A stretch of DNA of 64,000 bases from Escherichia phage vB_vPM_PD114. Positions 6,205 through 56,601 of this stretch are shown here, in pieces. The stretch lies in sequence record MH675927.1. One strand, 5' to 3'. The notes beneath the pieces were generated by a model. That model was not told where the DNA came from. It saw nothing but the letters and a program-made list of their open reading frames with translations, and searched no databases. A program made the translations under genes and the position numbers. Numbering within the stretch: the first letter of the stretch is position 1; every line of letters begins with the position of its first letter.

Positions 6205-8091
6205 ATGTATCCTATTCCTTTATTTATGTCAACAACATCAGCTTCAGTAGTAACAGCTACGTCTATAACCACTTCCTCTATTGGTATTGCAATAGTTGGT
6301 AGTAAAAAGCAACTGACATACACAGTTTCACCAGAAGATGGTGCGTTATTTGATATAGCTTTTTCATCTTCAGATAATACCAAAATGGTTATAGATAATA
6401 ACGGTATGATGGAGTTTGTTGCTGAAGGCGGTTTTGATGCAATAATGACAGCTAAAAATAATTTAGGTGCTGTCTTAACTGATCAATCTGGTGGCTATGC
6501 TTCAGAATTAAGTGTGTACACTGAAAGTCTGTCTGCTATGGATGCAGGAACTACTCAACAATTGGTTGCTACAATCAGTCCAGAAGGTGCTAAAGACCTT
6601 CCAGACATGGTAATTACGTACACCACAACAGATCCAGAAGTAGCTACTGTAAGCCCTACAGGATTAATAACTGCTCTTAAAGATGGCAGTTGCCGTATAG
6701 GTTGTACTGCAACTTATCAAGGAACAGTGGTGGCCTCTGATAGTTCTTATTTAGGTGTTAATGCTATTCCTGTTATTTCTAATGTAACAGCCGTGGCAAA
6801 CAGCTATGGAGACATTCGTGTTGCTTGGGATGTAGCTGATCCGCTAGATGGTGATACTTATACTGTAGAAGTATTAGATTTAAGTAATAACAGTGTCCAG
6901 TGGACTACAACAACCACGAATACTTACGCTTACTTTGATATCTCTGACTCTATTCCTCTTTATGGGTTTGCTCCAACATACCTTAAAATTAGCGTTAAGA
7001 GCACCAAAGCAGCACCCGTTATCTTTAATAACTCAATAGCTACAGATGATTCATTCATTAAAGAAGTTATTGTCTTTGCTGGACAAGATAACGTAAATGC
7101 ACACTTTACAGAATTATCTGGTGCAAATAAAGCAGCAATGAGTAGCACAACAGCCCGTAACGCATATGCTACGCAACGTGGTTTAGCAAATGCTGAAGTT
7201 CTTCCGTTAAATGCAGCTTCTGGATCATCAGCAGCAGATAAATATGCAGATGATAAAGCCGGAACAGGTACACCAGACAACTACTGGTATGATCTGGATA
7301 ACGCAGCAGATGGGCCATGCTTAACTAATTTTATCACTAAAGTCACACCTTATGCAAGTAAGGTTAAAGCAATTATTTGGGGACAAGGTGAAAACGATGC
7401 TGTATCAGCATCTTCGACTGTTGCAGGTAGGTACAGTAACACTACACGTTACCATGATGCTACGATAGCTATCTTTGATAAGATGCGTACAATAGTTCCT
7501 GCTTCTCAAGCAAAAATTGTTTGGCAGATCCTAGGACGTTCTTATCTATATGGTGTAGAAGTTAATGGTGTGGATTGGCAGAAATACAGAAATGTACAAA
7601 GAACCATCTCTACAGCACGTGACGATGTTATCATTGGTTCTTGGGTGGATGGTGCTGAACGCTACAGTGGTTATGTTTATGAAGAAGGTATTGATGGTCG
7701 TATCCATTATGTTTCTTCTGTATATCAAACAGCAGCTACAAAACTTGCTAAATCAGCAGCAGACGGTACAGACTTAACATCAACACCGCCTGTTTGGGTT
7801 GATATGTCTGTTCCAACAGGAGGAGCCGCTGTAAGACAAGCTAACCAAGATGCAATTATTTCTTGGGAACCAGCAGGATATACCAAACATTACTTCCGAA
7901 ATGTAAACGTCCTCACAGCAGCAATTCTTACAGAACAAACTCTTGATACTAACACTTACACATTTACTTATGCAGATCAGGTTGAACAATACGGGTTTGC
8001 AGCAGGTACAACAGTGTTTGATGTTGCACACTATGATGCTGATAATGACGTGTTATCACCTCTTGTCAGATTTACAGTTAATATTACATAA
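6205..8091 (+). CDS. tail fiber / receptor-binding protein with Ig-like (Big_2-type) domain and C-terminal SASA/SGNH-like esterase-like domain
   Basis: RBS AAGGAG; Big_2-like segment ATVSPTGLITALKDGSCRI; C-terminal blocks VIVFAGQDNV and KAIIWGQGENDA resemble sialate O-acetylesterase (SASA) blocks GQSN and WxQGESD. Confidence 0.55.
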   Translation: MYPIPLFMSTTSASVVTATSITTSSIGIAIVGSKKQLTYTVSPEDGALFDIAFSSSDNTKMVIDNNGMMEFVAEGGFDAIMTAKNNLGAVLTDQSGGYASELSVYTESLSAMDAGTTQQLVATISPEGAKDLPDMVITYTTTDPEVATVSPTGLITALKDGSCRIGCTATYQGTVVASDSSYLGVNAIPVISNVTAVANSYGDIRVAWDVADPLDGDTYTVEVLDLSNNSVQWTTTTTNTYAYFDISDSIPLYGFAPTYLKISVKSTKAAPVIFNNSIATDDSFIKEVIVFAGQDNVNAHFTELSGANKAAMSSTTARNAYATQRGLANAEVLPLNAASGSSAADKYADDKAGTGTPDNYWYDLDNAADGPCLTNFITKVTPYASKVKAIIWGQGENDAVSASSTVAGRYSNTTRYHDATIAIFDKMRTIVPASQAKIVWQILGRSYLYGVEVNGVDWQKYRNVQRTISTARDDVIIGSWVDGAERYSGYVYEEGIDGRIHYVSSVYQTAATKLAKSAADGTDLTSTPPVWVDMSVPTGGAAVRQANQDAIISWEPAGYTKHYFRNVNVLTAAILTEQTLDTNTYTFTYADQVEQYGFAAGTTVFDVAHYDADNDVLSPLVRFTVNIT

Positions 8092-35340: not shown

Positions 35341-35619
35341 CATTATGTTCAAAGTGGCTCGCAAGGCCACTCCCGCACCATTACGTGCTGCTGCATGTCA
35401 CCATGCAGATCAGACTATATCTTCATGCTTAAAGCATGTCTACCATTTGGGGTGTCATAGGCTTACACCCTACGCTGCTACATTCATCACAGCTAGTCGT
35501 TAGGCATTTCGTAATAGTACCCCCTTCTTCTGTGTTGGGAGTTCTGTTACGTTTAGCACGGGATTGTCTCGTTGAGAGTTCCCCCGTTTAGGCAGATTTT
35601 ACATGAGCAGTTATAGTTT
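35341..35619 (-). ncRNA. group I self-splicing intron (td-like, no internal ORF) interrupting nrdD
   Basis: 279 nt between the two nrdD reading frames; core-like TAAACGGGGGAACTCTCAACGAGACAATCCCGTGCTAAAC and P7 3-prime element AAGATATAGTC; CTGCATG-GTGA-CATGCAG hairpin near the 3-prime end; ends GAACATAATG; exon 1 ends ...ATGGGT. Confidence 0.75.
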
Positions 35620-36477
35620 ACCCATGCTTGTGACGCGACCATCTGAAGATCCTGTAACTTCTTTGTTTAAAGGTACAGAGATAAAATCAGGATAAATGCG
35701 TTCAGCACAACACTCCATTGCCAGTTGCTTCAAATCATAGTTTGGATCGCCAGCTTTCATGTTAACACCATCTTCCAAGAAGAAGATAACTTTAGGAAAC
35801 ACAGGAGTTACCCTATCTTTTCCTAATCCTTGTTTGTGCACCATTAGGTAGTTTTTAGTGATCATTCTACCAAAAGCAGAGGTATCCAAACCTAAACTAA
35901 TTGTTATAAAAGGTGACTGACCATTTACACTCATTAGAGTGTTCACCTGGTAGATTAAAGTTTGCATTGCATCATAGACCTGTTTATCTACCATACGCAT
36001 AGCAATATCATAATCGCCAACATCGGCATATATTTTATTAAAACTTGCTTTAACGTATTGACTAAGCCCAGTATCAACATGTGCACAAGTTTGTCCACCA
36101 TATTGGCTAGAGGCTACTGCTTGAATAATTTGAGTTAGGACAGTAGTTGCTACACCGATAGATTTTGGTTTTTCAATATGTGCATTACCAATACGGAAAC
36201 CGTTCTCAAGCATATCTTGGTAATTTACCAGGCAACAATTAGTTAGAGGTGAGAGTAAATAATCTAAATCGTGAATGTGACCATACCCGCTTTTATGCCA
36301 TTCTGCCAGATCTTCCGGTAAAATATGGGTCATTGCCATGTGCTTGCTCAGAATACCTGCTAGTAAGTCTCGGTGAGTATTAACAATCATTGCAGGTTTG
36401 TTTGCATTTTCACGAGTAAATTCTTCGGATGTTTGTTCGAGGAATCCGATTACATCCTCATATAGTTTTTGGGTCAT
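35620..36477 (-). CDS. nrdD: anaerobic ribonucleotide reductase NrdD, exon 1
   Basis: Start ATG 36477 (RBS GGAGG); reading frame stops 9 nt into the intron; splicing predicted to join ...RVTSMG to CRSFLSYY..., giving a 599-aa product. Confidence 0.8.
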
Positions 36478-45751: not shown

Positions 45752-46180
45752 TTATTCTCCAAATCGAAAATCGTCAATATCATCAAACCATACACAATGG
45801 CGAGTCCTTTCTTTTTCTGTTGCAGACATTGTTTCAACAGCTTTAGGACTAAGCACAACAGGAATGTAACGAACAGGTCGTTCATAATAGTAGCCATACT
45901 TTTCTGTATTAGCTGCCTCAAAGACTTTACGGCGTTCTTCAAGATCTTCTATGGTGAATCCTACCATATAACCATCATGTTTGCTACCCCATCCTTCCTC
46001 ACTTTCAACAATCGGGATATAAAAGCCGTTACGCGTTCCTGACGCTGGTTCTTCTTGAGCCTGAAGGCAAGCCTCCCATCCTGCTTTAAAGACGTTATAG
46101 AGCGATTTACGCACGTTATGAGTGCCGCTTTCGCTTGCTGGATAGAGTTCATTAAATTTGTCTTGGATTTGTTGTGTCAT
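45752..46180 (-). CDS. hypothetical protein
   Basis: 142-aa ORF; RBS AAGGGG. Confidence 0.45.
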   Translation of the reverse strand: MTQQIQDKFNELYPASESGTHNVRKSLYNVFKAGWEACLQAQEEPASGTRNGFYIPIVESEEGWGSKHDGYMVGFTIEDLEERRKVFEAANTEKYGYYYERPVRYIPVVLSPKAVETMSATEKERTRHCVWFDDIDDFRFGE

Positions 46181-46323
46181 ACTCGCCCCTTAGTGATTAT
46201 TTGACCAGCTAAACAAATAGCTTGTAGTACAATAAAGAAGTAGCCTAATTTTACACTACCCAATACCCAGAATGCAATGTTTGCAAACAAACAAAAAGCA
46301 ATATTAAGTCTAAAGAATAACAT
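46177..46323 (-). CDS. small membrane protein (not in supplied ORF track)
   Basis: 48 aa (MLFFRLNIAFCLFANIAFWVLGSVKLGYFFIVLQAICLAGQIITKGRV); translationally coupled on both sides (TAAATG upstream, ATGA downstream). Confidence 0.4.
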   Translation of the reverse strand: MLFFRLNIAFCLFANIAFWVLGSVKLGYFFIVLQAICLAGQIITKGRV

Positions 46324-46590
46324 TTAATCCCCTTCATATTTAGGTAAAGGCATATATGCCACAATAGGAGGGTAATCAAAGTGAAAATGATGGTTCACCA
46401 CAATAATCTTACCAGACATACTTTTATGCACTTCACAATACCCTTTTCCACCATCTTCCATTACCACCACATACTCACCTAGTGGGATATCGTATGGATC
46501 TTCTACTTTTACCCATCCTGTCATTTTGTAAACTCCTCGTAGTAAGGTAAAGCCTTGATCAGTTGTTCTGAAGTGCCATTTTGCACCCAC
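46324..46590 (-). CDS. hypothetical protein
   Basis: 88-aa ORF. Confidence 0.4.
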   Translation of the reverse strand: MGAKWHFRTTDQGFTLLRGVYKMTGWVKVEDPYDIPLGEYVVVMEDGGKGYCEVHKSMSGKIIVVNHHFHFDYPPIVAYMPLPKYEGD

Positions 46591-46656
46591 GTAACACCAT
46601 TGTCAACAGAAACATACCCTTTTTTGTCAATAAATTTACGCAGACAGCCAGTGAAC

Positions 46657-46836
46657 TTATTTTTGTAGATCATTTCTTCTTTCCTTTTTGATTACAGCCC
46701 CATCACTCCCTTGCCAAACTTCCGATCTGAATTCCATCTCAAACCACTCACCACCGCAAAAACGGCTATGTTCAACACGTCTATCTTCCTTCATTGCTTC
46801 TTTAGCTTCGATAGAAGTTAGTTCGATGTTTTGCAT
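46657..46836 (-). CDS. hypothetical protein (first gene of the minus-strand block)
   Basis: Start trimmed to ATG 46836 with strong RBS GAAAGGAGA; the longer track ORF lacks an RBS. Confidence 0.4.
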   Translation of the reverse strand: MQNIELTSIEAKEAMKEDRRVEHSRFCGGEWFEMEFRSEVWQGSDGAVIKKERRNDLQK

Positions 46837-46954
46837 TTGTTTTTCTCCTTTCATTTGGTATGCGCTAATCTTAACAAAATAAAAATGTATGTCAATACTT
46901 GATTTGAAATTAGTTTCTGGTACTCTGTGTGTATCGTAACAAAAGAGGTTAGAT

Positions 46955-47245
46955 ATGAACATCACACTAGCAACTAAGAATATTACAGAAACTTTTGATG
47001 GTTTTGGCATTATTATTGCTGTTCATGGGCATAACGAAAAATGGTTAGCCTCTTTTGAAGAGGACAAAGAACGCAATGTACGTTTGAATGCACCAATCAA
47101 AGTTTTACACCAGGTAGGTGAGAATAAGAAACAATGGAGATCATACAAAGAGTGGAACATTACGAACGAGTTAATACACAAACTTGACAAAGTGATAAAC
47201 ATGTTCGACAATGCACCAAGCAGTGCAAAACGTGTCTTAATGTGA
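46955..47245 (+). CDS. hypothetical protein
   Basis: 96-aa ORF; RBS AAAGAGG; first gene of the divergent plus-strand block. Confidence 0.45.
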   Translation: MNITLATKNITETFDGFGIIIAVHGHNEKWLASFEEDKERNVRLNAPIKVLHQVGENKKQWRSYKEWNITNELIHKLDKVINMFDNAPSSAKRVLM

Positions 47246-47257
47246 GAGGAGAACCAA

Positions 47258-47545
47258 ATGTATTATTCACAAAATGAAGTAGCAAACATTAAACTGGCAG
47301 TGGGCGATCTTATTGTGTCACCTAACTACTATTGGGATAACACAGATTTGGTTGAAGTAGTAACCTATGTTGGAGTTGAAGGTATTGTGCTCTACACACT
47401 AGGTGGAGGTGTTGTTGGGGAAATGGAACGTTATACGACAACGAAGAAACTGGTAAGCTCTTATCGCATGTTTTTACACCAAGGTTCGGAAGAGTATACA
47501 GCTTTCTTGTTGAAATTAGATGCAGATCGGGAGAAGGCACGATGA
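47258..47545 (+). CDS. hypothetical protein
   Basis: 95-aa ORF with RBS GAGAGGAG. Confidence 0.45.
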   Translation: MYYSQNEVANIKLAVGDLIVSPNYYWDNTDLVEVVTYVGVEGIVLYTLGGGVVGEMERYTTTKKLVSSYRMFLHQGSEEYTAFLLKLDADREKAR

Positions 47546-47895
47546 AAATTGTACACGATGAAATTCAATTTGAAGAGAGTGATCTTCTTGATCTGGATGT
47601 GACACTAAGTAAACTGATCTACAACGCACTTTCTGCATATCGTGCAAAAGTGATAGCCACAAACAATGTTGAAATTCCTAGCGGGTTACTTCGTCGGATG
47701 TACCCACACGCTAAAGGTGACTATCTACCTTATATGGAAGAACGAGCAGCAGAACACTGGTTAGAAATTCTTGAAAAAATGGAGTCCTCTTTTAAAGATT
47801 CAACTCCACCGGAAGAAGTTAATGAAAAACAACGGCAAGAGCGTTTAGAAGGTCGTATTTTGTTTGCTAAGTATTTCCATAATTTGTGGAGCTAA
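47542..47895 (+). CDS. hypothetical protein
   Basis: 117-aa ORF, ATGA overlap with upstream gene. Confidence 0.45.
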   Translation: MKIVHDEIQFEESDLLDLDVTLSKLIYNALSAYRAKVIATNNVEIPSGLLRRMYPHAKGDYLPYMEERAAEHWLEILEKMESSFKDSTPPEEVNEKQRQERLEGRILFAKYFHNLWS

Positions 47896-47971
47896 ACATA
47901 TCTGGTAAAATCACTTATATGTTCTTAGTATACTTGTGTAAAGAAGTTATCGGTCTAATTAAGGGGAAGAT

Positions 47972-48223
47972 ATGATTCAGTTTCAAAAAGGTCAAAAGAT
48001 GACGGTATACGACGCAAAAGATATGGAATTTGCACTTGAACTTCTCGAAGATGCAGGTTTTGTGTGGATCAACGGCGGAGAGAAGCCTACGGCTTGGCTT
48101 CCACATGAAAAAATAGCCAACCACACCTTTCCTGATAGTATCAATTGGCATTCTGATGGTAAGATTTGCCGTGGAAGTTACCCAACAGGTGTTGAGTGGA
48201 CTATTAAATTAGGAGGACTTTAA
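47972..48223 (+). CDS. hypothetical protein
   Basis: 83-aa ORF with RBS AAGGGGAAG. Confidence 0.45.
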   Translation: MIQFQKGQKMTVYDAKDMEFALELLEDAGFVWINGGEKPTAWLPHEKIANHTFPDSINWHSDGKICRGSYPTGVEWTIKLGGL

Positions 48224-48224
48224 T

Positions 48225-48563
48225 ATGTTTAGTAAAGAAATGAGAGAAGTAATTGCCACTTTGGTAGTTGATCATGGTGTTGAAGTTGAGCGTCACGTTT
48301 GGAACGATGAACCTCCTTTCTTCGATTTGGCATCACGAGCTAAAAGTCATATGTACCTGCTGGAAGACGGTAATGAGTTTGTTCTCCGTATGCGTTATGA
48401 TCGAGAGTTTCGAATTCCGCTTGACACTGAACCAGATGGTGTAGTAATGTGGTTGGCAGAACATTTCGCATACGATGCACTACATGGAAGAAGTTTTGGT
48501 AATGAGCGTTGGGATGCCATTTGTCGTAAGCATAATATTGAACCAGAGTACGGGAGTATGTAA
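48225..48563 (+). CDS. hypothetical protein
   Basis: 112-aa ORF with RBS AGGAGG. Confidence 0.45.
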   Translation: MFSKEMREVIATLVVDHGVEVERHVWNDEPPFFDLASRAKSHMYLLEDGNEFVLRMRYDREFRIPLDTEPDGVVMWLAEHFAYDALHGRSFGNERWDAICRKHNIEPEYGSM

Positions 48564-48814
48564 TGTTAAGTATCAAACCTAAAATGATAACGGAAGATGA
48601 AGCAGACTTTATTTTCAAATGTGGACGTGTATGGAGAGAATTCACAAAAGGAAATGAAGTGGTTGTTGTTGTCGAACACAAGATATCTATCCAGGATCTG
48701 TTTGGACAATATGTTGATGTTATTAAATTAGGTATTGACAAGGGTTTAGTTGAGGTGTTAACATTAGATCAAGTTGAAGCAGAGCACCTCGATAAAGTAG
48801 TGGTTGAATTTTAA
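48563..48814 (+). CDS. hypothetical protein
   Basis: 83-aa ORF overlapping upstream stop. Confidence 0.45.
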   Translation: MLSIKPKMITEDEADFIFKCGRVWREFTKGNEVVVVVEHKISIQDLFGQYVDVIKLGIDKGLVEVLTLDQVEAEHLDKVVVEF

Positions 48815-48834
48815 AATACAGACGGGAGAAAGGT

Positions 48835-49008
48835 ATGAGTTTCTTTGTTACAGTATTTATGGCTATCTGGATTGTAGTCTCACTCGTTCTTTTCCTGGTG
48901 GGTTGTCTGGAAGAGATTAAGAAAGCGGTTATTTGCGGTTTCTTTGGCTTTATTATCTCTCCTGCCTGGATGTGGTTCTTCATTATGATTGGTTTCCTTA
49001 AAAGGTAA
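48835..49008 (+). CDS. small membrane protein (not in supplied ORF track)
   Basis: 57 aa, two hydrophobic helices; RBS GGGAGAAAGG. Confidence 0.35.
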   Translation: MSFFVTVFMAIWIVVSLVLFLVGCLEEIKKAVICGFFGFIISPAWMWFFIMIGFLKR

Positions 49009-49022
49009 GTGAGGAATAAAGA

Positions 49023-49460
49023 ATGAGTAAAACAAACGCAATTGCAGATAAAGCAACGGATGTACTTCTGAATATGGTTAACGTCACTATTCAAACAATG
49101 AGTGATGTTGTAGAGTTTGGAAAACAACAAATTCCAGAAGTAATCCATCAATTACTAGTGTGGAAAGCAGTATCCGCAGGTTTATGGCAACTTTTTAGTA
49201 TTTGCTTTATGTTTATTACTTTTATTGCTGTGCGGAACCTCGTAAAAGCAATTAAAGATAAAGAATGCCTGTGGTCACGAGATCGCTATGGTGAAGTATC
49301 TGCTTTACCTATTGTTGGTCTTGTTGTCTGTGCTTTCTTTTTCTTTTTAGGATTTGTTATTTTCTTTTCGAATTTTGATTGGCTAAAAATCATTATTGCA
49401 CCAAAAGTGTATCTGATTGAATTTGCTGCTGATTTAATTCGTTCATCTCAACAAAAATAA
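49023..49460 (+). CDS. membrane protein
   Basis: 145 aa with hydrophobic helices; RBS GAGGAA. Confidence 0.45.
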   Translation: MSKTNAIADKATDVLLNMVNVTIQTMSDVVEFGKQQIPEVIHQLLVWKAVSAGLWQLFSICFMFITFIAVRNLVKAIKDKECLWSRDRYGEVSALPIVGLVVCAFFFFLGFVIFFSNFDWLKIIIAPKVYLIEFAADLIRSSQQK

Positions 49461-49471
49461 AAGGGGTTAAA

Positions 49472-50599
49472 ATGAAATACACGATTTATGGTGATATTGT
49501 AAGTGTAAATAAAGATATGGGTGTGGAATCTAATTATCTTCCACCTGGATTCTATACTGTTAGTCGTGATCCCCTTGGCAATTATTTTTTAAGCCGTGGT
49601 AATCTAACAGGTGTACCGGATGTTCTGTATGGTGAAACAGAAAAACGAGCAAATCACGTTATCCGTACATTCCATCGCCGGAGTGCACAAGGTAAAAATA
49701 CAGGTTTGCTTCTGACAGGAACTAAGGGCAGTGGTAAAACTATGTTAGCCAAGCTCATTAGTCGTGACCTTGTAGAAGAAGGTATTCCAACTATTATGGT
49801 TACTCAAGCCTACAGTGATGCTAATTTCATTGAACTTATTAGCAAGATCACCGACAAAGCAGTGATTATTTTTGACGAGTTTGATAAAGTATATGAGAAG
49901 AAACAAGATCAAGAAGCACTTCTCACTTTGTTAGATGGTACTGGCAGTGGTAATAAACTGTTTATTCTAACTAAAAACAGTGGCTTTATCTCTGAATTCT
50001 TTCTAAATCGTCCTAGTCGTGTGTTTTATAATTTTAATTATGATAAAATCTCACTAGAAACTATGATTGACTATTTAGATAAAAACCTGGATAACAAAGC
50101 ACACTTTGATAATTTCCAAAGACTTTGGGATGTAAGTTTAGAGTTGTCCTTTGATGTGATCCAAGGTATAGTAGAAGAACTTAATTTCTACCCTGATTTA
50201 TCCTTTAAAGAATGCATCTCTATGATGGGCGTTTCTTTGGGTGGTGGTAATAAATGGGATATCAGCAGCGTTGTTATTAATGGAAAACTTCAGAAAGTTA
50301 GCTGGGTATCTAGTTGGCATAACTTTACACCTGCAATCTTTTTAGGTGGCTCGTGCACACTAGACGTGTACTTGTCATCTCCAAGTGATGCAGACTCTAA
50401 AGAAGCCCTTGCTAATAGCTCTTACGTGGTTTTTGATGATGAAGGCGATGCTCGAATTCCATTGAATGCGACAAAAATGAAAGCAGATCTTATTACAGGC
50501 GGTAAAATCGTTGTGTTTAGTGATGATCCAGAAGATTCTTTCCGTATTGTTCTGGAACCAACTATCACCAATGGTGCAACTTTGGCAAGTGTGTTTTAA
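49472..50599 (+). CDS. AAA-type ATPase, paralog B
   Basis: Walker A GTKGSGKT, Walker B IIFDEFDK, RPSRVFY; N-terminal 230 aa colinear with 32751-33911, C-terminal half unrelated. Confidence 0.65.
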   Translation: MKYTIYGDIVSVNKDMGVESNYLPPGFYTVSRDPLGNYFLSRGNLTGVPDVLYGETEKRANHVIRTFHRRSAQGKNTGLLLTGTKGSGKTMLAKLISRDLVEEGIPTIMVTQAYSDANFIELISKITDKAVIIFDEFDKVYEKKQDQEALLTLLDGTGSGNKLFILTKNSGFISEFFLNRPSRVFYNFNYDKISLETMIDYLDKNLDNKAHFDNFQRLWDVSLELSFDVIQGIVEELNFYPDLSFKECISMMGVSLGGGNKWDISSVVINGKLQKVSWVSSWHNFTPAIFLGGSCTLDVYLSSPSDADSKEALANSSYVVFDDEGDARIPLNATKMKADLITGGKIVVFSDDPEDSFRIVLEPTITNGATLASVF

Positions 50600-50612: not shown

Positions 50613-50640
50613 TAAAAACCCGCTTCGGCGGGTTTTCTTG
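50613..50640 (+). terminator. rho-independent terminator
   Basis: AAAACCCGC-TTCG-GCGGGTTTT followed by CTTG. Confidence 0.7.
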
Positions 50641-50673
50641 TATTGATGCCAGATTTAATAAAAGGAGCAGTAG

Positions 50674-51864
50674 ATGCCAGCACCAAAATCATGGGAACAA
50701 TATAAAGAAGAGTGTCAACTTCTTGCGAATAAGAAGGGGATTGAGATCCTAGGGTATGTTGAACCGTTTATAGGGGGTAGTACAAAAATGATCCTACGCT
50801 GTAGACAGAAACATGAATGGAATACTTGTAGTATTAAGAATTTCAAGCGCGGTAGAAGTTGTCCTATCTGTGCTGGTAAAAGCAAGACGTTAGAAGATTA
50901 CCTTGCAGAATGCCAGCCATTAGCTGTTGAAAGAGGGATAGAGATTTTAGGTATCAATGGTGAGTTTATAGGTTGTGATACGAAAATGATGCTACGTTGT
51001 AGGCATGGTCACGAATGGAACACATGTAGCTTTGATAATTTTAAACGTGGCAATGGTTGTCTTGTATGTAGGTATGAGAATACAAGGAAGTTACAAACAA
51101 TATCCGACGATCAACACGTTGCAGACTTCTTTTCTACTGGTGTCTTCCCTGAAGGCACTATCTTCACTAACACAGGAAGAAGTAACAAATTTGGAAAAAG
51201 TATTTGGATGATTGAGTGTCCTGTTTGTTCTCACGATGAATATGTGAAAGCTGGTGTATGTAATGGTAAATTTTATTCTAGAGGGTGTCACCTAAAACAA
51301 GGGAGTATCCCTTGCCGTTGTTCTACAAACTACCGTTATACAAAAGATCAGATCACCTACAGGGTAAAAAAGACAGTAGAAAGGAAAGGGTATGTTTGGG
51401 TAGGTTGGATCGGTAAACCGTCTATAAGACCAGGTAAGTTTAAATATCTTTGTCTTATGCATGGGGAACAGATAGGGCGTGCTGATTCCTTATTAAATCA
51501 GGATAGTGGTTGTCCACAATGTGCTGGTCATAGTCAACAGCAATTATATATTAATATTGTTAAAGATAATGATATTATAGTTGCTCTTAAGTTTGGCATA
51601 GCTAAAGATAGCGATAGACGATTAAACAGTCAAAATAGCCGTAATCTGTTTTTTATGGAGCGTATTTGTTTATATGATTTTAGCACAGTGAAACAGTGTA
51701 AGGCTGCTGAAAGAGCTATAAAGAAAAAATTAAAAACTGGTATTTTAACAGCAAGAGAGTTGAAAGACGGTCATACAGAAACAGTAAGTGTTTCTGATTT
51801 GGAAAATCTTCAAAAAATTATTACACAATGTGGTGGCAAATTAGTATACAATAAGGAGGTGTAA
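50674..51864 (+). CDS. zinc-ribbon repeat protein with C-terminal T5orf172/GIY-YIG-like domain (putative DNA-binding or nuclease)
   Basis: Repeated units ...HEWNTCS..NFKRG..CP.C...; C-terminal LYINIVKDNDIIVALKFGIAKDSDRRLNSQNS resembles the T5orf172 motif. Confidence 0.4.
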   Translation: MPAPKSWEQYKEECQLLANKKGIEILGYVEPFIGGSTKMILRCRQKHEWNTCSIKNFKRGRSCPICAGKSKTLEDYLAECQPLAVERGIEILGINGEFIGCDTKMMLRCRHGHEWNTCSFDNFKRGNGCLVCRYENTRKLQTISDDQHVADFFSTGVFPEGTIFTNTGRSNKFGKSIWMIECPVCSHDEYVKAGVCNGKFYSRGCHLKQGSIPCRCSTNYRYTKDQITYRVKKTVERKGYVWVGWIGKPSIRPGKFKYLCLMHGEQIGRADSLLNQDSGCPQCAGHSQQQLYINIVKDNDIIVALKFGIAKDSDRRLNSQNSRNLFFMERICLYDFSTVKQCKAAERAIKKKLKTGILTARELKDGHTETVSVSDLENLQKIITQCGGKLVYNKEV

Positions 51865-52416
51865 ATGCGGATTACTGACAAGTATGTGTTCTTCTTCTCG
51901 GCAAAAGATGAATTTAGCAACTGGTATCTATCATCTTTTATTGAACCTTTAGCTCCCAAGTATAATAATTCTATTACAAGTTCTGTCGAATTTACTTGTG
52001 TGGAACAATATATGATGTGGAGAAAAGCATGTTTGTTTTATGATTACAATATTGCATCTTCTATTTTAACCGGAGATCTAAGATATACAGGAGAAAAAGA
52101 ACAAGCATATTATAAACGACTAGGCAGATCAGTTAAAGATTATGATGAAGATACTTGGACTTCTTTACGGGAGAAGATTGTCAAGCGTGGTTTGTATCTT
52201 AAATACACACAAAATGAAGATCTCAAAAATAAACTTATCGCTTACGCAGATAAGGAGTTCGTAGAGGCAAGCCCCTATGATTCTATTTATGGTATCAAAA
52301 TGGGGATGTGGGATCGTGATGTTGAAAACAAGGATTGTTGGAAAGGACAAAATCTTTTAGGAAAATGGCATACAGACCTTGCTGTTTATCTAAAAACACA
52401 ATCTGATATTTCCTGA
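51865..52416 (+). CDS. NADAR (YbiA/DUF1768) family protein, predicted ADP-ribosyl N-glycosidase
   Basis: VFFFSAKDEFSNW...FTCVEQYMMWRKA...RLGRSV...ASPYDSIYGIKMG...GQNLLGK colinear with the YbiA/NADAR signature; RBS AAGGAGG. Confidence 0.75.
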   Translation: MRITDKYVFFFSAKDEFSNWYLSSFIEPLAPKYNNSITSSVEFTCVEQYMMWRKACLFYDYNIASSILTGDLRYTGEKEQAYYKRLGRSVKDYDEDTWTSLREKIVKRGLYLKYTQNEDLKNKLIAYADKEFVEASPYDSIYGIKMGMWDRDVENKDCWKGQNLLGKWHTDLAVYLKTQSDIS

Positions 52417-54181: not shown

Positions 54182-54242
54182 TTGACAACGTTTTTTAAAC
54201 TGATAAGATGTATCACATAGGGCGGCGGAATACTTCCCCGCC
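54182..54242 (+). promoter_or_regulatory. sigma70 promoter (TTGACA-16-TAAGAT, extended TG) plus GC-rich leader hairpin
   Basis: TTGACA 54182-54187, TAAGAT 54204-54209, hairpin GGGCGGCGGAATACTTCCCCGCC 54220-54242, then RBS and ATG 54265; 40-nt promoter sequence repeated at 56520. Confidence 0.6.
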
Positions 54243-54264
54243 AAAACAAAAAAAGGGTAATGCA

Positions 54265-54627
54265 ATGAGCAAGCAAATCAATACTATCATGTTTAATCTG
54301 GTATCTTTCCGCGACGATATGAAAAATTTACCACGTGAAACGGTTGATATTCATGTTTCAGCTTATCGCGCCCTTATTGATATGTTACCGCTAAAACGTG
54401 ATCAACATGCCGCTAATATGATGCTTAATGCTATGCTTAAAAAGATGATTCAAACGGATCTCACCCTGGCGTATGAGTATCAAGGGCGCTTATATGCAAC
54501 TTACAACAAGGCGGTACCTGGTCTGGGAAGTACCGAAGAGTTGCACGGCTTAAACCTGGATCAAAACACTTGGGATAGTATGCGCCGCGTTATGGTATGG
54601 GCCGAAAGCGGTAAAATTTACGAATAA
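54265..54627 (+). CDS. hypothetical protein
   Basis: Start at ATG 54265 (RBS AAGGG) downstream of promoter and hairpin; the longer track ORF begins inside the promoter. Confidence 0.5.
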   Translation: MSKQINTIMFNLVSFRDDMKNLPRETVDIHVSAYRALIDMLPLKRDQHAANMMLNAMLKKMIQTDLTLAYEYQGRLYATYNKAVPGLGSTEELHGLNLDQNTWDSMRRVMVWAESGKIYE

Positions 54628-56188: not shown

Positions 56189-56246
56189 TTGACAGCACGA
56201 ATAAAAAGCATATAATACTTATATCGAGAGCGGGAATAGTTCCCGC
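56189..56246 (+). promoter_or_regulatory. consensus sigma70 promoter (TTGACA-16-TATAAT) plus leader hairpin GCGGGAA-TAG-TTCCCGC
   Basis: TTGACA 56189-56194, TATAAT 56211-56216, hairpin 56230-56246. Confidence 0.65.
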
Positions 56247-56270
56247 CTCACTGAAAAAGAGATTAACATC

Positions 56271-56510
56271 ATGGCTAAATCTAAAATGTACAACGGTCAC
56301 AAAAATAAAACTCATTGGAATGTAAGCCTTTGGATTAATAACGATCCAGGTTTTTATAATATGGCAAAAGAATTTATAGCCGTGAACAACAATAAAGATA
56401 ACGCCGCGCGTGAAATGATGTCACTACTTAACGAAATGGGCCAAACTACTACGCCAGATGGCTATAAATTCAGTAAAACCAGTATCCGCGCCGCTATGGT
56501 AGGAATGTAA
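56271..56510 (+). CDS. hypothetical protein
   Basis: 79 aa. Confidence 0.5.
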   Translation: MAKSKMYNGHKNKTHWNVSLWINNDPGFYNMAKEFIAVNNNKDNAAREMMSLLNEMGQTTTPDGYKFSKTSIRAAMVGM

Positions 56511-56519
56511 TAAAAACAG

Positions 56520-56579
56520 TTGACAACGTTTTTTAAACTGATAAGATGTATCACATAGGGCGGGAAATGGTTTCCCGCC
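56520..56579 (+). promoter_or_regulatory. sigma70 promoter (TTGACA-16-TAAGAT) plus 21-bp palindrome GGCGGGAAATGGTTTCCCGCC
   Basis: Promoter nearly identical over 40 nt to the one at 54182; palindrome 56559-56579. Confidence 0.6.
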
Positions 56580-56601
56580 AAATCAAAGAAAGGTTAACAT
56601 T

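Follow-up and report, generated by a model that had tools for sequence, protein, structure and literature searches.

What kind of protein is encoded by the gene at 50674-51864 in a stretch of DNA from Escherichia phage vB_vPM_PD114, and how did one part of it come to differ so strongly between phages that are otherwise almost identical? The stretch analysed ("the window", 64,000 nucleotides of sequence record MH675927.1) comes from a phi92-like E. coli myophage (Stephanstirmvirinae, Justusliebigvirus). The gene is an open reading frame (ORF) for 396 amino acids, which runs from ATG to TAA on the plus strand and occupies exactly these positions of the 64-kb window. By its sequence, the protein belongs to the T5orf172/CapR-array class described by Barth, Dunham and Seed in 2023 (PMC10448857). 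It consists of an array of four zinc-ribbon modules, predicted to bind DNA, followed by a T5orf172 domain that is predicted to cleave it. The array and the nuclease domain have separate histories. Here we class the gene with T5orf172/CapR-array endonucleases of the putative homing type, not with proven homing endonucleases.

Domain organization

The original prediction, made from the letters of the sequence and their translation, had likened the protein to modular homing endonucleases or DNA-binding regulators. This likeness holds up. The protein matches PHROG 681 ("endonuclease") at 2.3e-78 over residues 6-394, and its four CapR stretches and T5orf172 domain reproduce the architecture of Barth et al. 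The search with hidden Markov model profiles that had been proposed as a check found profile support from Pfam (CapR, E=9e-28, and T5orf172) as well as from PHROG 681. The parts of the gene are as follows.

50674-51864, plus strand: coding sequence of the CapR-array/T5orf172 endonuclease, with the TAA stop at 51862-51864; identified by its ORF, Pfam and PHROG matches and a ratio of nonsynonymous to synonymous divergence (dN/dS) below 1 throughout.
50686-50883, plus strand: module A1, residues 5-70; predicted ligands C43-x3-H47...C63-x2-C66; motif HEWNTCS; CapR 35.5 bits (E=1e-8), DUF4379 20.9 bits.
50884-51093, plus strand: module A2, residues 71-140; predicted ligands C109-x3-H113...C129-x2-C132; motif HEWNTCS; CapR 30.2 bits (E=5e-7).
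51094-51330, plus strand: module B, residues 141-219; C182-x2-C185...C214-x-C216; CapR 46.8 bits (E=3.5e-12).
51331-51534, plus strand: module A3, residues 220-287; C260-x2-H263...C280-x2-C283; CapR 19.8 bits, below the cut-off (E=9e-4), DUF723 16.7 bits.
51535-51861, plus strand: T5orf172 domain (GIY-YIG superfamily), residues 288-396; identified by Pfam PF10544, its invariant residues and an AlphaFold2 (AF2) model.

The modules are about 66-79 residues long and fall into two subtypes. The whole protein scores 96.7 bits against Pfam CapR (PF21817, cut-off 24.2 bits) in four matched stretches. When the modules are scanned singly, as listed above, three of the four exceed the cut-off. Weaker matches to the related families DUF4379 and DUF723 are also found in the array modules. 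The four zinc-ribbon modules of the original prediction are thus confirmed, with A3 matching below the cut-off. The four copies of HEWNTC...CPxC that it had described are not, as HEWNTCS occurs only in A1 and A2. NCBIfam gave only a sub-threshold match to the YnfU zinc-binding family, and no PADLOC defence family matches the protein at E<=0.01.

Module B is the closest of the four to CapR proper and has the CxxC...CxC pattern, while the ligands of the A modules follow the variant C-x(2-3)-H...CxxC. Across 53 homologues the Cys/His ligands of all modules are invariant or nearly so. C109, C129 and C132 of module A2 and C182 of module B are invariant, and C185, C214 and C216 of module B and the ligands of module A3 are kept in at least 90% of the homologues. 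To judge from the repeats that they share, module A2 is a diverged tandem copy of A1. The two are 61% identical in protein sequence and contain a direct repeat of 106 nt with 73% identity in DNA (50766-50871 and 50964-51069), the copies being spaced by 198 nt, or 66 codons.

The full-length AF2 model has a predicted local distance difference test score (pLDDT) of 91 and a predicted template modelling score (pTM) of only 0.48. A high pLDDT combined with a low pTM fits modules that fold independently, without a fixed mutual arrangement. Module A1 is modelled with a pLDDT of 83-95 as helix-strand-strand-strand-helix. The CapR protein of PLE binds DNA through the four cysteines of its CxxC...CxC motif, as gel shifts show, and Cys-to-Ser mutants lose binding (PMC8096241). 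By analogy with CapR, the array is expected to bind zinc and DNA.

The T5orf172/GIY-YIG-like C terminus was also correctly predicted. The score of PF10544, which is part of the GIY-YIG clan, is 24.0 bits with the full protein and 27.0 bits when residues 284-396 are scanned alone; the cut-off is 20. The homologous C-terminal domains match T5orf172 at E<=0.01 in 15 of 28 cases. Invariance within the domain was judged on sets of 53 and 28 homologues. Nine residues (Y292, K306, G308, R316, E346, D365, G366, E369 and T370) do not vary among homologues, even at identities as low as about 25%, and the first five of these are also invariant in comparison with T5p137 of phage T5 and gp165 of phage ICP1. 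The residues expected of a GIY-YIG catalytic site are therefore conserved: a Tyr on strand 1, (Y/K)-x-G on strand 2, an Arg on helix 1 and a candidate metal-binding Glu. Their spacing, Tyr-14-Lys-10-Arg-53-Glu, resembles the GIY...YIG...R...E layout, taken here from I-TevI. From this spacing and its position before helix 3, E369 would be the counterpart of E75 in I-TevI and E180 in Odn. A profile-profile comparison (hhalign) of the C-terminal domain with an unverified I-TevI sequence aligned KFG...R with YVG...R at a probability of 0.3, and was not used as evidence.

Modelled alone, the domain has a pLDDT of 94.3 and a pTM of 0.87, with its elements in the order strand-strand-helix-strand-helix-helix-strand. 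Its top three neighbours in the PDB are GIY-YIG nucleases, namely two Slx1 chains (6sei) and HIGLE (7wme). The next GIY-YIG neighbours, UvrC (1yd5) and more Slx1 chains, are interleaved with unrelated proteins. Among predicted viral models (BFVD), 68 match the domain at E<=1e-3 with template modelling scores (TM) of 0.7-0.98, some of them named GIY-YIG, homing endonuclease or T5 Orf172. The domain is thus a T5orf172 domain by sequence, while the models are only suggestive of membership in the GIY-YIG fold.

The dN/dS of the T5orf172 domain is 0.12-0.42, which indicates purifying selection. Because the GIY-YIG residues are invariant and the domain is under such selection, the nuclease option of the original prediction is better supported than the regulator option. 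Odn, another T5orf172 protein, cuts DNA in vitro, and its E180A mutation abolishes cutting (PMC8263062). By analogy with Odn and with GIY-YIG enzymes, the domain is likely to cleave DNA.

Exchange of the array between alleles

The array is the variable part of the gene. The lengths of the 74 homologous proteins form classes that differ by about 68 residues, and the module count ranges from two to six. The architecture of the window's protein, AABA, is found in 24 of them; ABA occurs in 25, BABA in nine, AAABA in five and ABAABA in two. The gene of phage AV123 is shorter than that of the window by exactly 198 nt, which is one repeat unit.

Compared with its congeners, the window is 100% identical in the ATPase encoded upstream of the endonuclease, about 98% in the NADAR protein encoded downstream and 93-96% in the T5orf172 domain, while the array is only 45-69% identical. 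Synonymous divergence (dS) has the same distribution: 0.04-0.14 in the flanking genes, 0.07-0.16 in the T5orf172 domain, and from 0.2 to saturated in the array modules, where saturation was reached in the comparisons of module A2 with phi92, PATM and IMGVR. In every segment with an estimable dS, dN/dS is below 1 (0.12-0.57 overall, about 0.2-0.6 in the modules), so that every part of the gene appears to be under purifying selection. Hypermutation of the array in situ was considered and rejected, since the synonymous divergence, too, is 10-50 times that of the flanks, as expected of imported or anciently diverged cassettes. The high dS of the array relative to its flanks thus argues that it was not hypermutated in place but was assembled by recombination from anciently diverged, selectively maintained cassettes.

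The window's array shares 64% identity with the array of phAPEC8, which comes from another genus, despite identities of only 66% in the ATPase and 47% in the T5orf172 domain. It is 45% identical to that of phi92, which belongs to the same genus, despite identities of 100% in the ATPase and 95% in the T5orf172 domain. That the array is nearer to the other genus than to phi92 indicates cassette exchange. The nearest alleles of the single modules come from different phages: PD06 for A1 (79% identity), phAPEC8 for A2 (66%), J-01 for B (80%) and PD06 or AV123 for A3 (about 75%). The 54 kb that were compared with phi92 have a median identity of 97% and include about six divergent patches, of which the array is one.

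Further patches that differ by 15-30% from congeners of otherwise 97-100% identity lie at 54201-54600, 56201-56600 and 48001-48600. The first of these covers the 5' part of an unannotated ORF of 139 codons (54208-54627), which has no Pfam match.

In the comparison with PD06 (locus L006), there are 0 mismatches per 200 nt over about 4 kb (45800-49800), except for an insertion or deletion at about 47.25-47.55 kb. The end of this identical block lies about 0.9 kb upstream of the endonuclease; from 49.8 to 53.0 kb, the divergence is 1-6%. In this single comparison, the change fits a boundary of recombination close to the nuclease gene. The insertion or deletion corresponds to an ORF of 95 codons at 47258-47545 (plus strand), about 3 kb upstream of the endonuclease, which matches Pfam Phage_tudor at 88.7 bits. 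The ORF is cleanly absent, with a gap of about 280 nt, from PD06, AV123, J-01 and PATM, and a similar gene is present in a Phapecoctavirus-like contig (L017, 559-846). It is a small presence/absence polymorphism.

Occurrence in related phages

PD06, arall, muut and some 50 further records share about 94% identity with the window over the 3.1 kb surrounding the gene. Presence and absence were surveyed from GenBank records; a survey of IMG/VR by means of the ATPase gave only four loci. At all 13 of the Justusliebigvirus or Phapecoctavirus loci that were opened, the endonuclease directly follows the ATPase, and its ORF is intact in 12 of them. In the remaining phage, KKP 3954 (L015, 561-2771), the ATPase and the endonuclease are each annotated as two overlapping ORFs. 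This gene was not relied on as a decaying copy, since the split of the ATPase as well suggests sequencing errors.

In two relatives that are more distant, with an ATPase of 74% identity, no endonuclease gene follows the ATPase. There, a small ORF and a DUF6939 gene take the place of the endonuclease and NADAR genes (Klebsiella phage phi1_175008, L010, 5229-6184; L007, 7168-8002).

A tblastn search found homologues in 448 phage records of many genera, among them Escherichia, Vibrio, Aeromonas, Klebsiella, T5 and T4-like phages; a genome often has them at two to four places. The sequences thus point to spread into unrelated genomes and amplification of paralogues, as expected of a homing gene. 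Within the window, tblastn found no paralogue at E<1. The genome of phiWec179 carries a second gene, consisting of an A module and a T5orf172 domain, about 4 kb upstream on the opposite strand (L009, 659-1612, minus strand). In L017, a protein of 197 residues with a weak CapR match (6380-6973) is encoded two genes downstream of a six-module allele of 669 residues. Both genomes are of the Phapecoctavirus type and have such extra relatives near the slot. The T5 protein T5p137 (L018, 340-1152; 270 residues), which is annotated as hypothetical and encoded immediately upstream of the tail gene pb2, has two CapR stretches and a C-terminal domain that can be aligned with that of the present protein and keeps its Tyr, Lys-x-Gly, Arg and Glu.

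Existing annotations of orthologues read "endonuclease", "putative homing endonuclease" or, in UniProt, "CapR homology domain-containing protein"; among those named are phi92 gene 222 ("endonuclease"), PD06 gp023 and phAPEC8 gp013. The best phage match to the whole protein in GenBank is 74.9% identical. One metagenomic relative is 99% identical; the Logan contig that carries it is 9.5 kb long and has the same genes downstream. An exact protein look-up found no record of the 396-residue sequence. Judged by these matches, the array allele in the window is new, and the gene class has already been described.

Three records labelled "Campylobacter phage" with C. jejuni as host (MG065689, A110a; MG065645, A145; MG065650, B15; 146-151 kb) also carry the endonuclease gene. 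The aligned DNA identity to the present E. coli phage locus is about 95% for A145 and about 71% for B15, and the protein identity is 65% for A110a and 53% for B15. These records are probably mislabelled or contaminant genomes.

Comparison with known systems

The closest parallel is the set of T5orf172 putative homing endonucleases with repeated CapR, DUF723 and DUF4379 zinc fingers reported by Barth et al., which in phage ICP1 includes gp165, gp174, gp121, gp53 and gp130 (PMC10448857). The same study described that modules are gained and lost by way of repeats and that the DNA-binding and nuclease parts have histories independent of each other, and its genome set included Inny, Muut and Mt1B1_P17, which belong to the phage group of the window (PMC10448857). 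The present gene shares with the ICP1 genes the N-terminal CapR/DUF723/DUF4379 array, the C-terminal T5orf172 domain, the gain and loss of modules through repeats, and the separate histories of array and nuclease. In Pfam, ICP1 gp165 has CapR in four stretches and T5orf172, and it is about 30% identical to residues 86-325 of the protein described here. The two systems differ in host and lineage. The ICP1 genes are numerous, variably present and often frameshifted, whereas the present gene has a single copy in the 64-kb window and keeps to one slot in two genera.

Module B resembles PLE CapR (Netter et al. 2021, PMC8096241), which is also a PF21817 zinc ribbon with the CxxC...CxC pattern. The gap between the two cysteine pairs is 28 residues in module B and 24-26 in CapR. 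Unlike CapR, a single-domain repressor that has no nuclease, the present protein has four modules and an apparently intact nuclease domain.

Odn (ICP1 gp88) and the Odn-like nucleases of Inny, Muut and Mt1B1_P17, some of them from the same phage subfamily, have in common with the present protein the T5orf172 domain and a pattern in which the nuclease is conserved and the DNA-binding domain is swapped. However, the Odn group's DNA-binding domain is a RepA_N domain copied from a satellite replication initiator, with a known target, while here it is a CapR-type array. Pfam found no RepA_N domain in the protein. A blastn search of 5,426 complete E. coli genomes with the DNA of the array gave no match, and no relative was found in GTDB representative genomes, which were scanned with a single T5-domain peptide pattern only.

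I-TevI and the Seg proteins of T4 are GIY-YIG homing endonucleases for which homing has been demonstrated. I-TevI has an N-terminal nuclease and a zinc finger in its DNA-binding part. The present gene is like them in superfamily, in its beads-on-a-string logic and in being free-standing between phage genes. It differs from I-TevI in that the order of the domains is reversed and that there is no detectable sequence similarity. Because the gene stands between two genes and not inside one, a search for an intron-less or intein-less target site, which had been suggested as a further check, does not apply. Compared with its orthologues in the phi92 group, the gene has the same slot after the ATPase, the same architecture and, within the genus, a T5orf172 domain of 93-96% identity, but it carries the new array allele.

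Proposed function and alternatives

The analysis shows the domain composition, the conservation of the Cys/His ligands, of the candidate catalytic residues and of the slot, the predicted fold, the purifying selection on all parts of the gene, the variation in module number and the separate histories of array and nuclease. Moreover, a nuclease domain and a separate DNA-recognition region are joined in a free-standing gene, as in homing genes. By analogy with the systems above, we consider it fairly probable that the protein is a sequence-specific DNA endonuclease, acting in mixed infections in which repair favours its own locus; we infer both the target and the homing. The four CapR-type modules, like beads on a string, would together read an extended DNA site, and the short linker (residues 284-290) would set the T5orf172 domain beside it for cutting with Tyr292, Arg316 and Glu369. 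When related phages co-infect one cell, the enzyme would cleave those genomes in which its target is present, and repair from the genome of the cutter would favour inheritance of its own locus (homing or marker exclusion). The genome of the carrier is presumed to be free of the target site. Specificity would be re-set when alleles exchange entire zinc-ribbon modules or their arrays as a whole, and modules may be gained or lost through recombination between repeats while the nuclease domain stays resident.

Several points weigh against homing or against the assignment of the domain. The part of the gene that moves is the DNA-binding array and not the whole gene, the nuclease domain having the same history as the flanks. 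The classical signature of homing, a sporadic occurrence among close relatives, is not seen in the two genera, and since the gene occupies the same slot at every locus opened there, these genomes offer no empty site to home into. The T5orf172 profile match is modest, at 24-27 bits. The solved GIY-YIG neighbours of the domain are non-significant (E=0.6-2, TM 0.3-0.5), and when the PDB was searched by sequence with profiles for the whole protein and for the C-terminal domain, only chance matches resulted, which were dismissed (ribosomal protein L31 at E=0.13, GST at E=0.66). Barth et al. state explicitly that homing is unverified for T5orf172 genes (PMC10448857), and no cleavage, target or biased inheritance is on record for any CapR-array T5orf172 gene.

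The fixed position of the gene in two genera, its intactness and the purifying selection on it would also be expected of a domesticated weapon, a resident nuclease that destroys the DNA of competitors (co-infecting phages, satellites or mobile elements) in the manner in which ICP1 Odn cuts the PLE origin, and whose array diversifies in an arms race. The pairing of a conserved nuclease with a hypervariable array is shared with the Odn-like T5orf172 genes of Inny, Muut and Mt1B1_P17 (PMC10448857), and Odn itself has been established experimentally as a T5orf172 nuclease with an acquired DNA-binding domain (PMC8263062). Nevertheless, Odn-like genes share DNA homology with satellite genes, whereas the searches of E. 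coli and GTDB genomes described above matched neither the array nor a relative, and the protein lacks RepA_N. We regard such a weapon as rather unlikely, and it overlaps with the proposed homing-type endonuclease in that both involve the cutting of competitor phages. It is possible, although doubtful, that the gene is no longer selfish and has become the resident, re-programmable nuclease of phi92-like phages. Its nuclease domain would then be fixed, while zinc-ribbon cassettes that are duplicated, deleted and swapped, also across genera, would re-aim its cleavage at co-infecting competitor phages or other mobile elements. If so, the variable array would be kept by frequency-dependent, arms-race selection, and the approximately 75 natural alleles would form a series from which a DNA-recognition code of CapR-type zinc ribbons might be read.

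A DNA-binding regulator, perhaps of its own operon, with a C-terminal domain that is catalytically idle or aids binding, is quite improbable. CapR, in which this zinc-ribbon domain is found as well, acts as a repressor, binding to a -35 element (PMC8096241). The gene lies in an operon-like run with a terminator hairpin just upstream, T5orf172 has long been annotated as a DNA-binding domain, and I-TevI represses its own operon. However, the Tyr, Arg and Glu of the catalytic type are invariant down to 25% identity and the dN/dS of the domain is low (see above); CapR has lost its nuclease domain, showing what a pure regulator looks like; and a swap of the entire array between near-identical phages is not what one would expect if the protein regulated a conserved phage promoter. 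Binding or cutting of structured RNA by modules resembling double-stranded RNA-binding domains (dsRBDs) was suggested by the helix-strand-strand-strand-helix order of the A modules, which fits a dsRBD, and by a Foldseek search of the PDB with the full-length model, in which the only matches were tandem dsRBD proteins (TARBP2, Loqs-PB, R2D2, PKR and ADAR2; best E=1.3e-3, probability 0.69, TM 0.13). With TM of 0.1-0.15 and root-mean-square deviations of 19-37 Å, these matches amount to noise and were rejected as artefacts that arise when a flexible model of several domains is aligned. Since the modules have significant matches to zinc-ribbon families that bind DNA, and CapR binds DNA, an RNA-directed function is very improbable indeed.

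The gene is ordinary in itself, as the phage nuclease class has been described and orthologues are annotated as endonucleases. Its value is that of a clean natural example, in which arrays of two to six modules and 45-75% identity are set in surroundings of 97-100% identity. The phi92 group is convenient for asking whether T5orf172 genes home, how CapR-type modules read DNA, and how array swaps affect the outcome of mixed infections. The design of phage cocktails may be affected, since related therapeutic coliphages could cut or convert one another.

Neighbouring genes and expression signals

The gene lies between an AAA ATPase gene and a NADAR gene, as had been noted. The features around it are:

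49472-50599, plus strand: upstream neighbour, AAA ATPase (PF00004; phrog_2376 at 6.6e-108).
50615-50636, plus strand: terminator-like GC-rich hairpin AAAACCCGCTTCGGCGGGTTTT, followed by a run of T, between the ATPase stop and the endonuclease start; from a consensus scan and the sequence.
50662-50667, plus strand: ribosome-binding site AAGGAG, 6 nt before the endonuclease ATG; read from the sequence.
51853-51859, plus strand: ribosome-binding site AAGGAGG of the NADAR gene, inside the last endonuclease codons; read from the sequence.
51865-52416, plus strand: downstream neighbour, NADAR/YbiA-like protein (PF08719 at 1.2e-36; TIGR02464).

The ATPase marks the conserved slot. Within Justusliebigvirus, the NADAR gene marks the slot as well. 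The TAA of the endonuclease directly abuts the NADAR ATG at 51865, an arrangement kept in five relatives (PD06, AV123, J-01, phi92 and PATM).

The hairpin site carries a terminator annotation in phage PATM, and the hairpin probably limits read-through expression of the endonuclease. A consensus scan found no sigma-70 promoter in the 37 nt from the hairpin to the endonuclease start. In the region as a whole, 13 promoter-like matches were found against 15.3 expected from shuffled sequence, so that there is no excess. Expression of the endonuclease is accordingly presumed to be low and to occur by read-through past the hairpin.

An intron elsewhere in the window

A group I catalytic intron lies at 35391-35665 on the minus strand (Rfam RF00028, 72.5 bits against a gathering threshold of 50, matching the full length of the model). 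With a length of 275 nt, it is too short to contain an endonuclease gene of its own. At the corresponding place in phi92, a spliced anaerobic ribonucleotide reductase gene (nrdD) is annotated.

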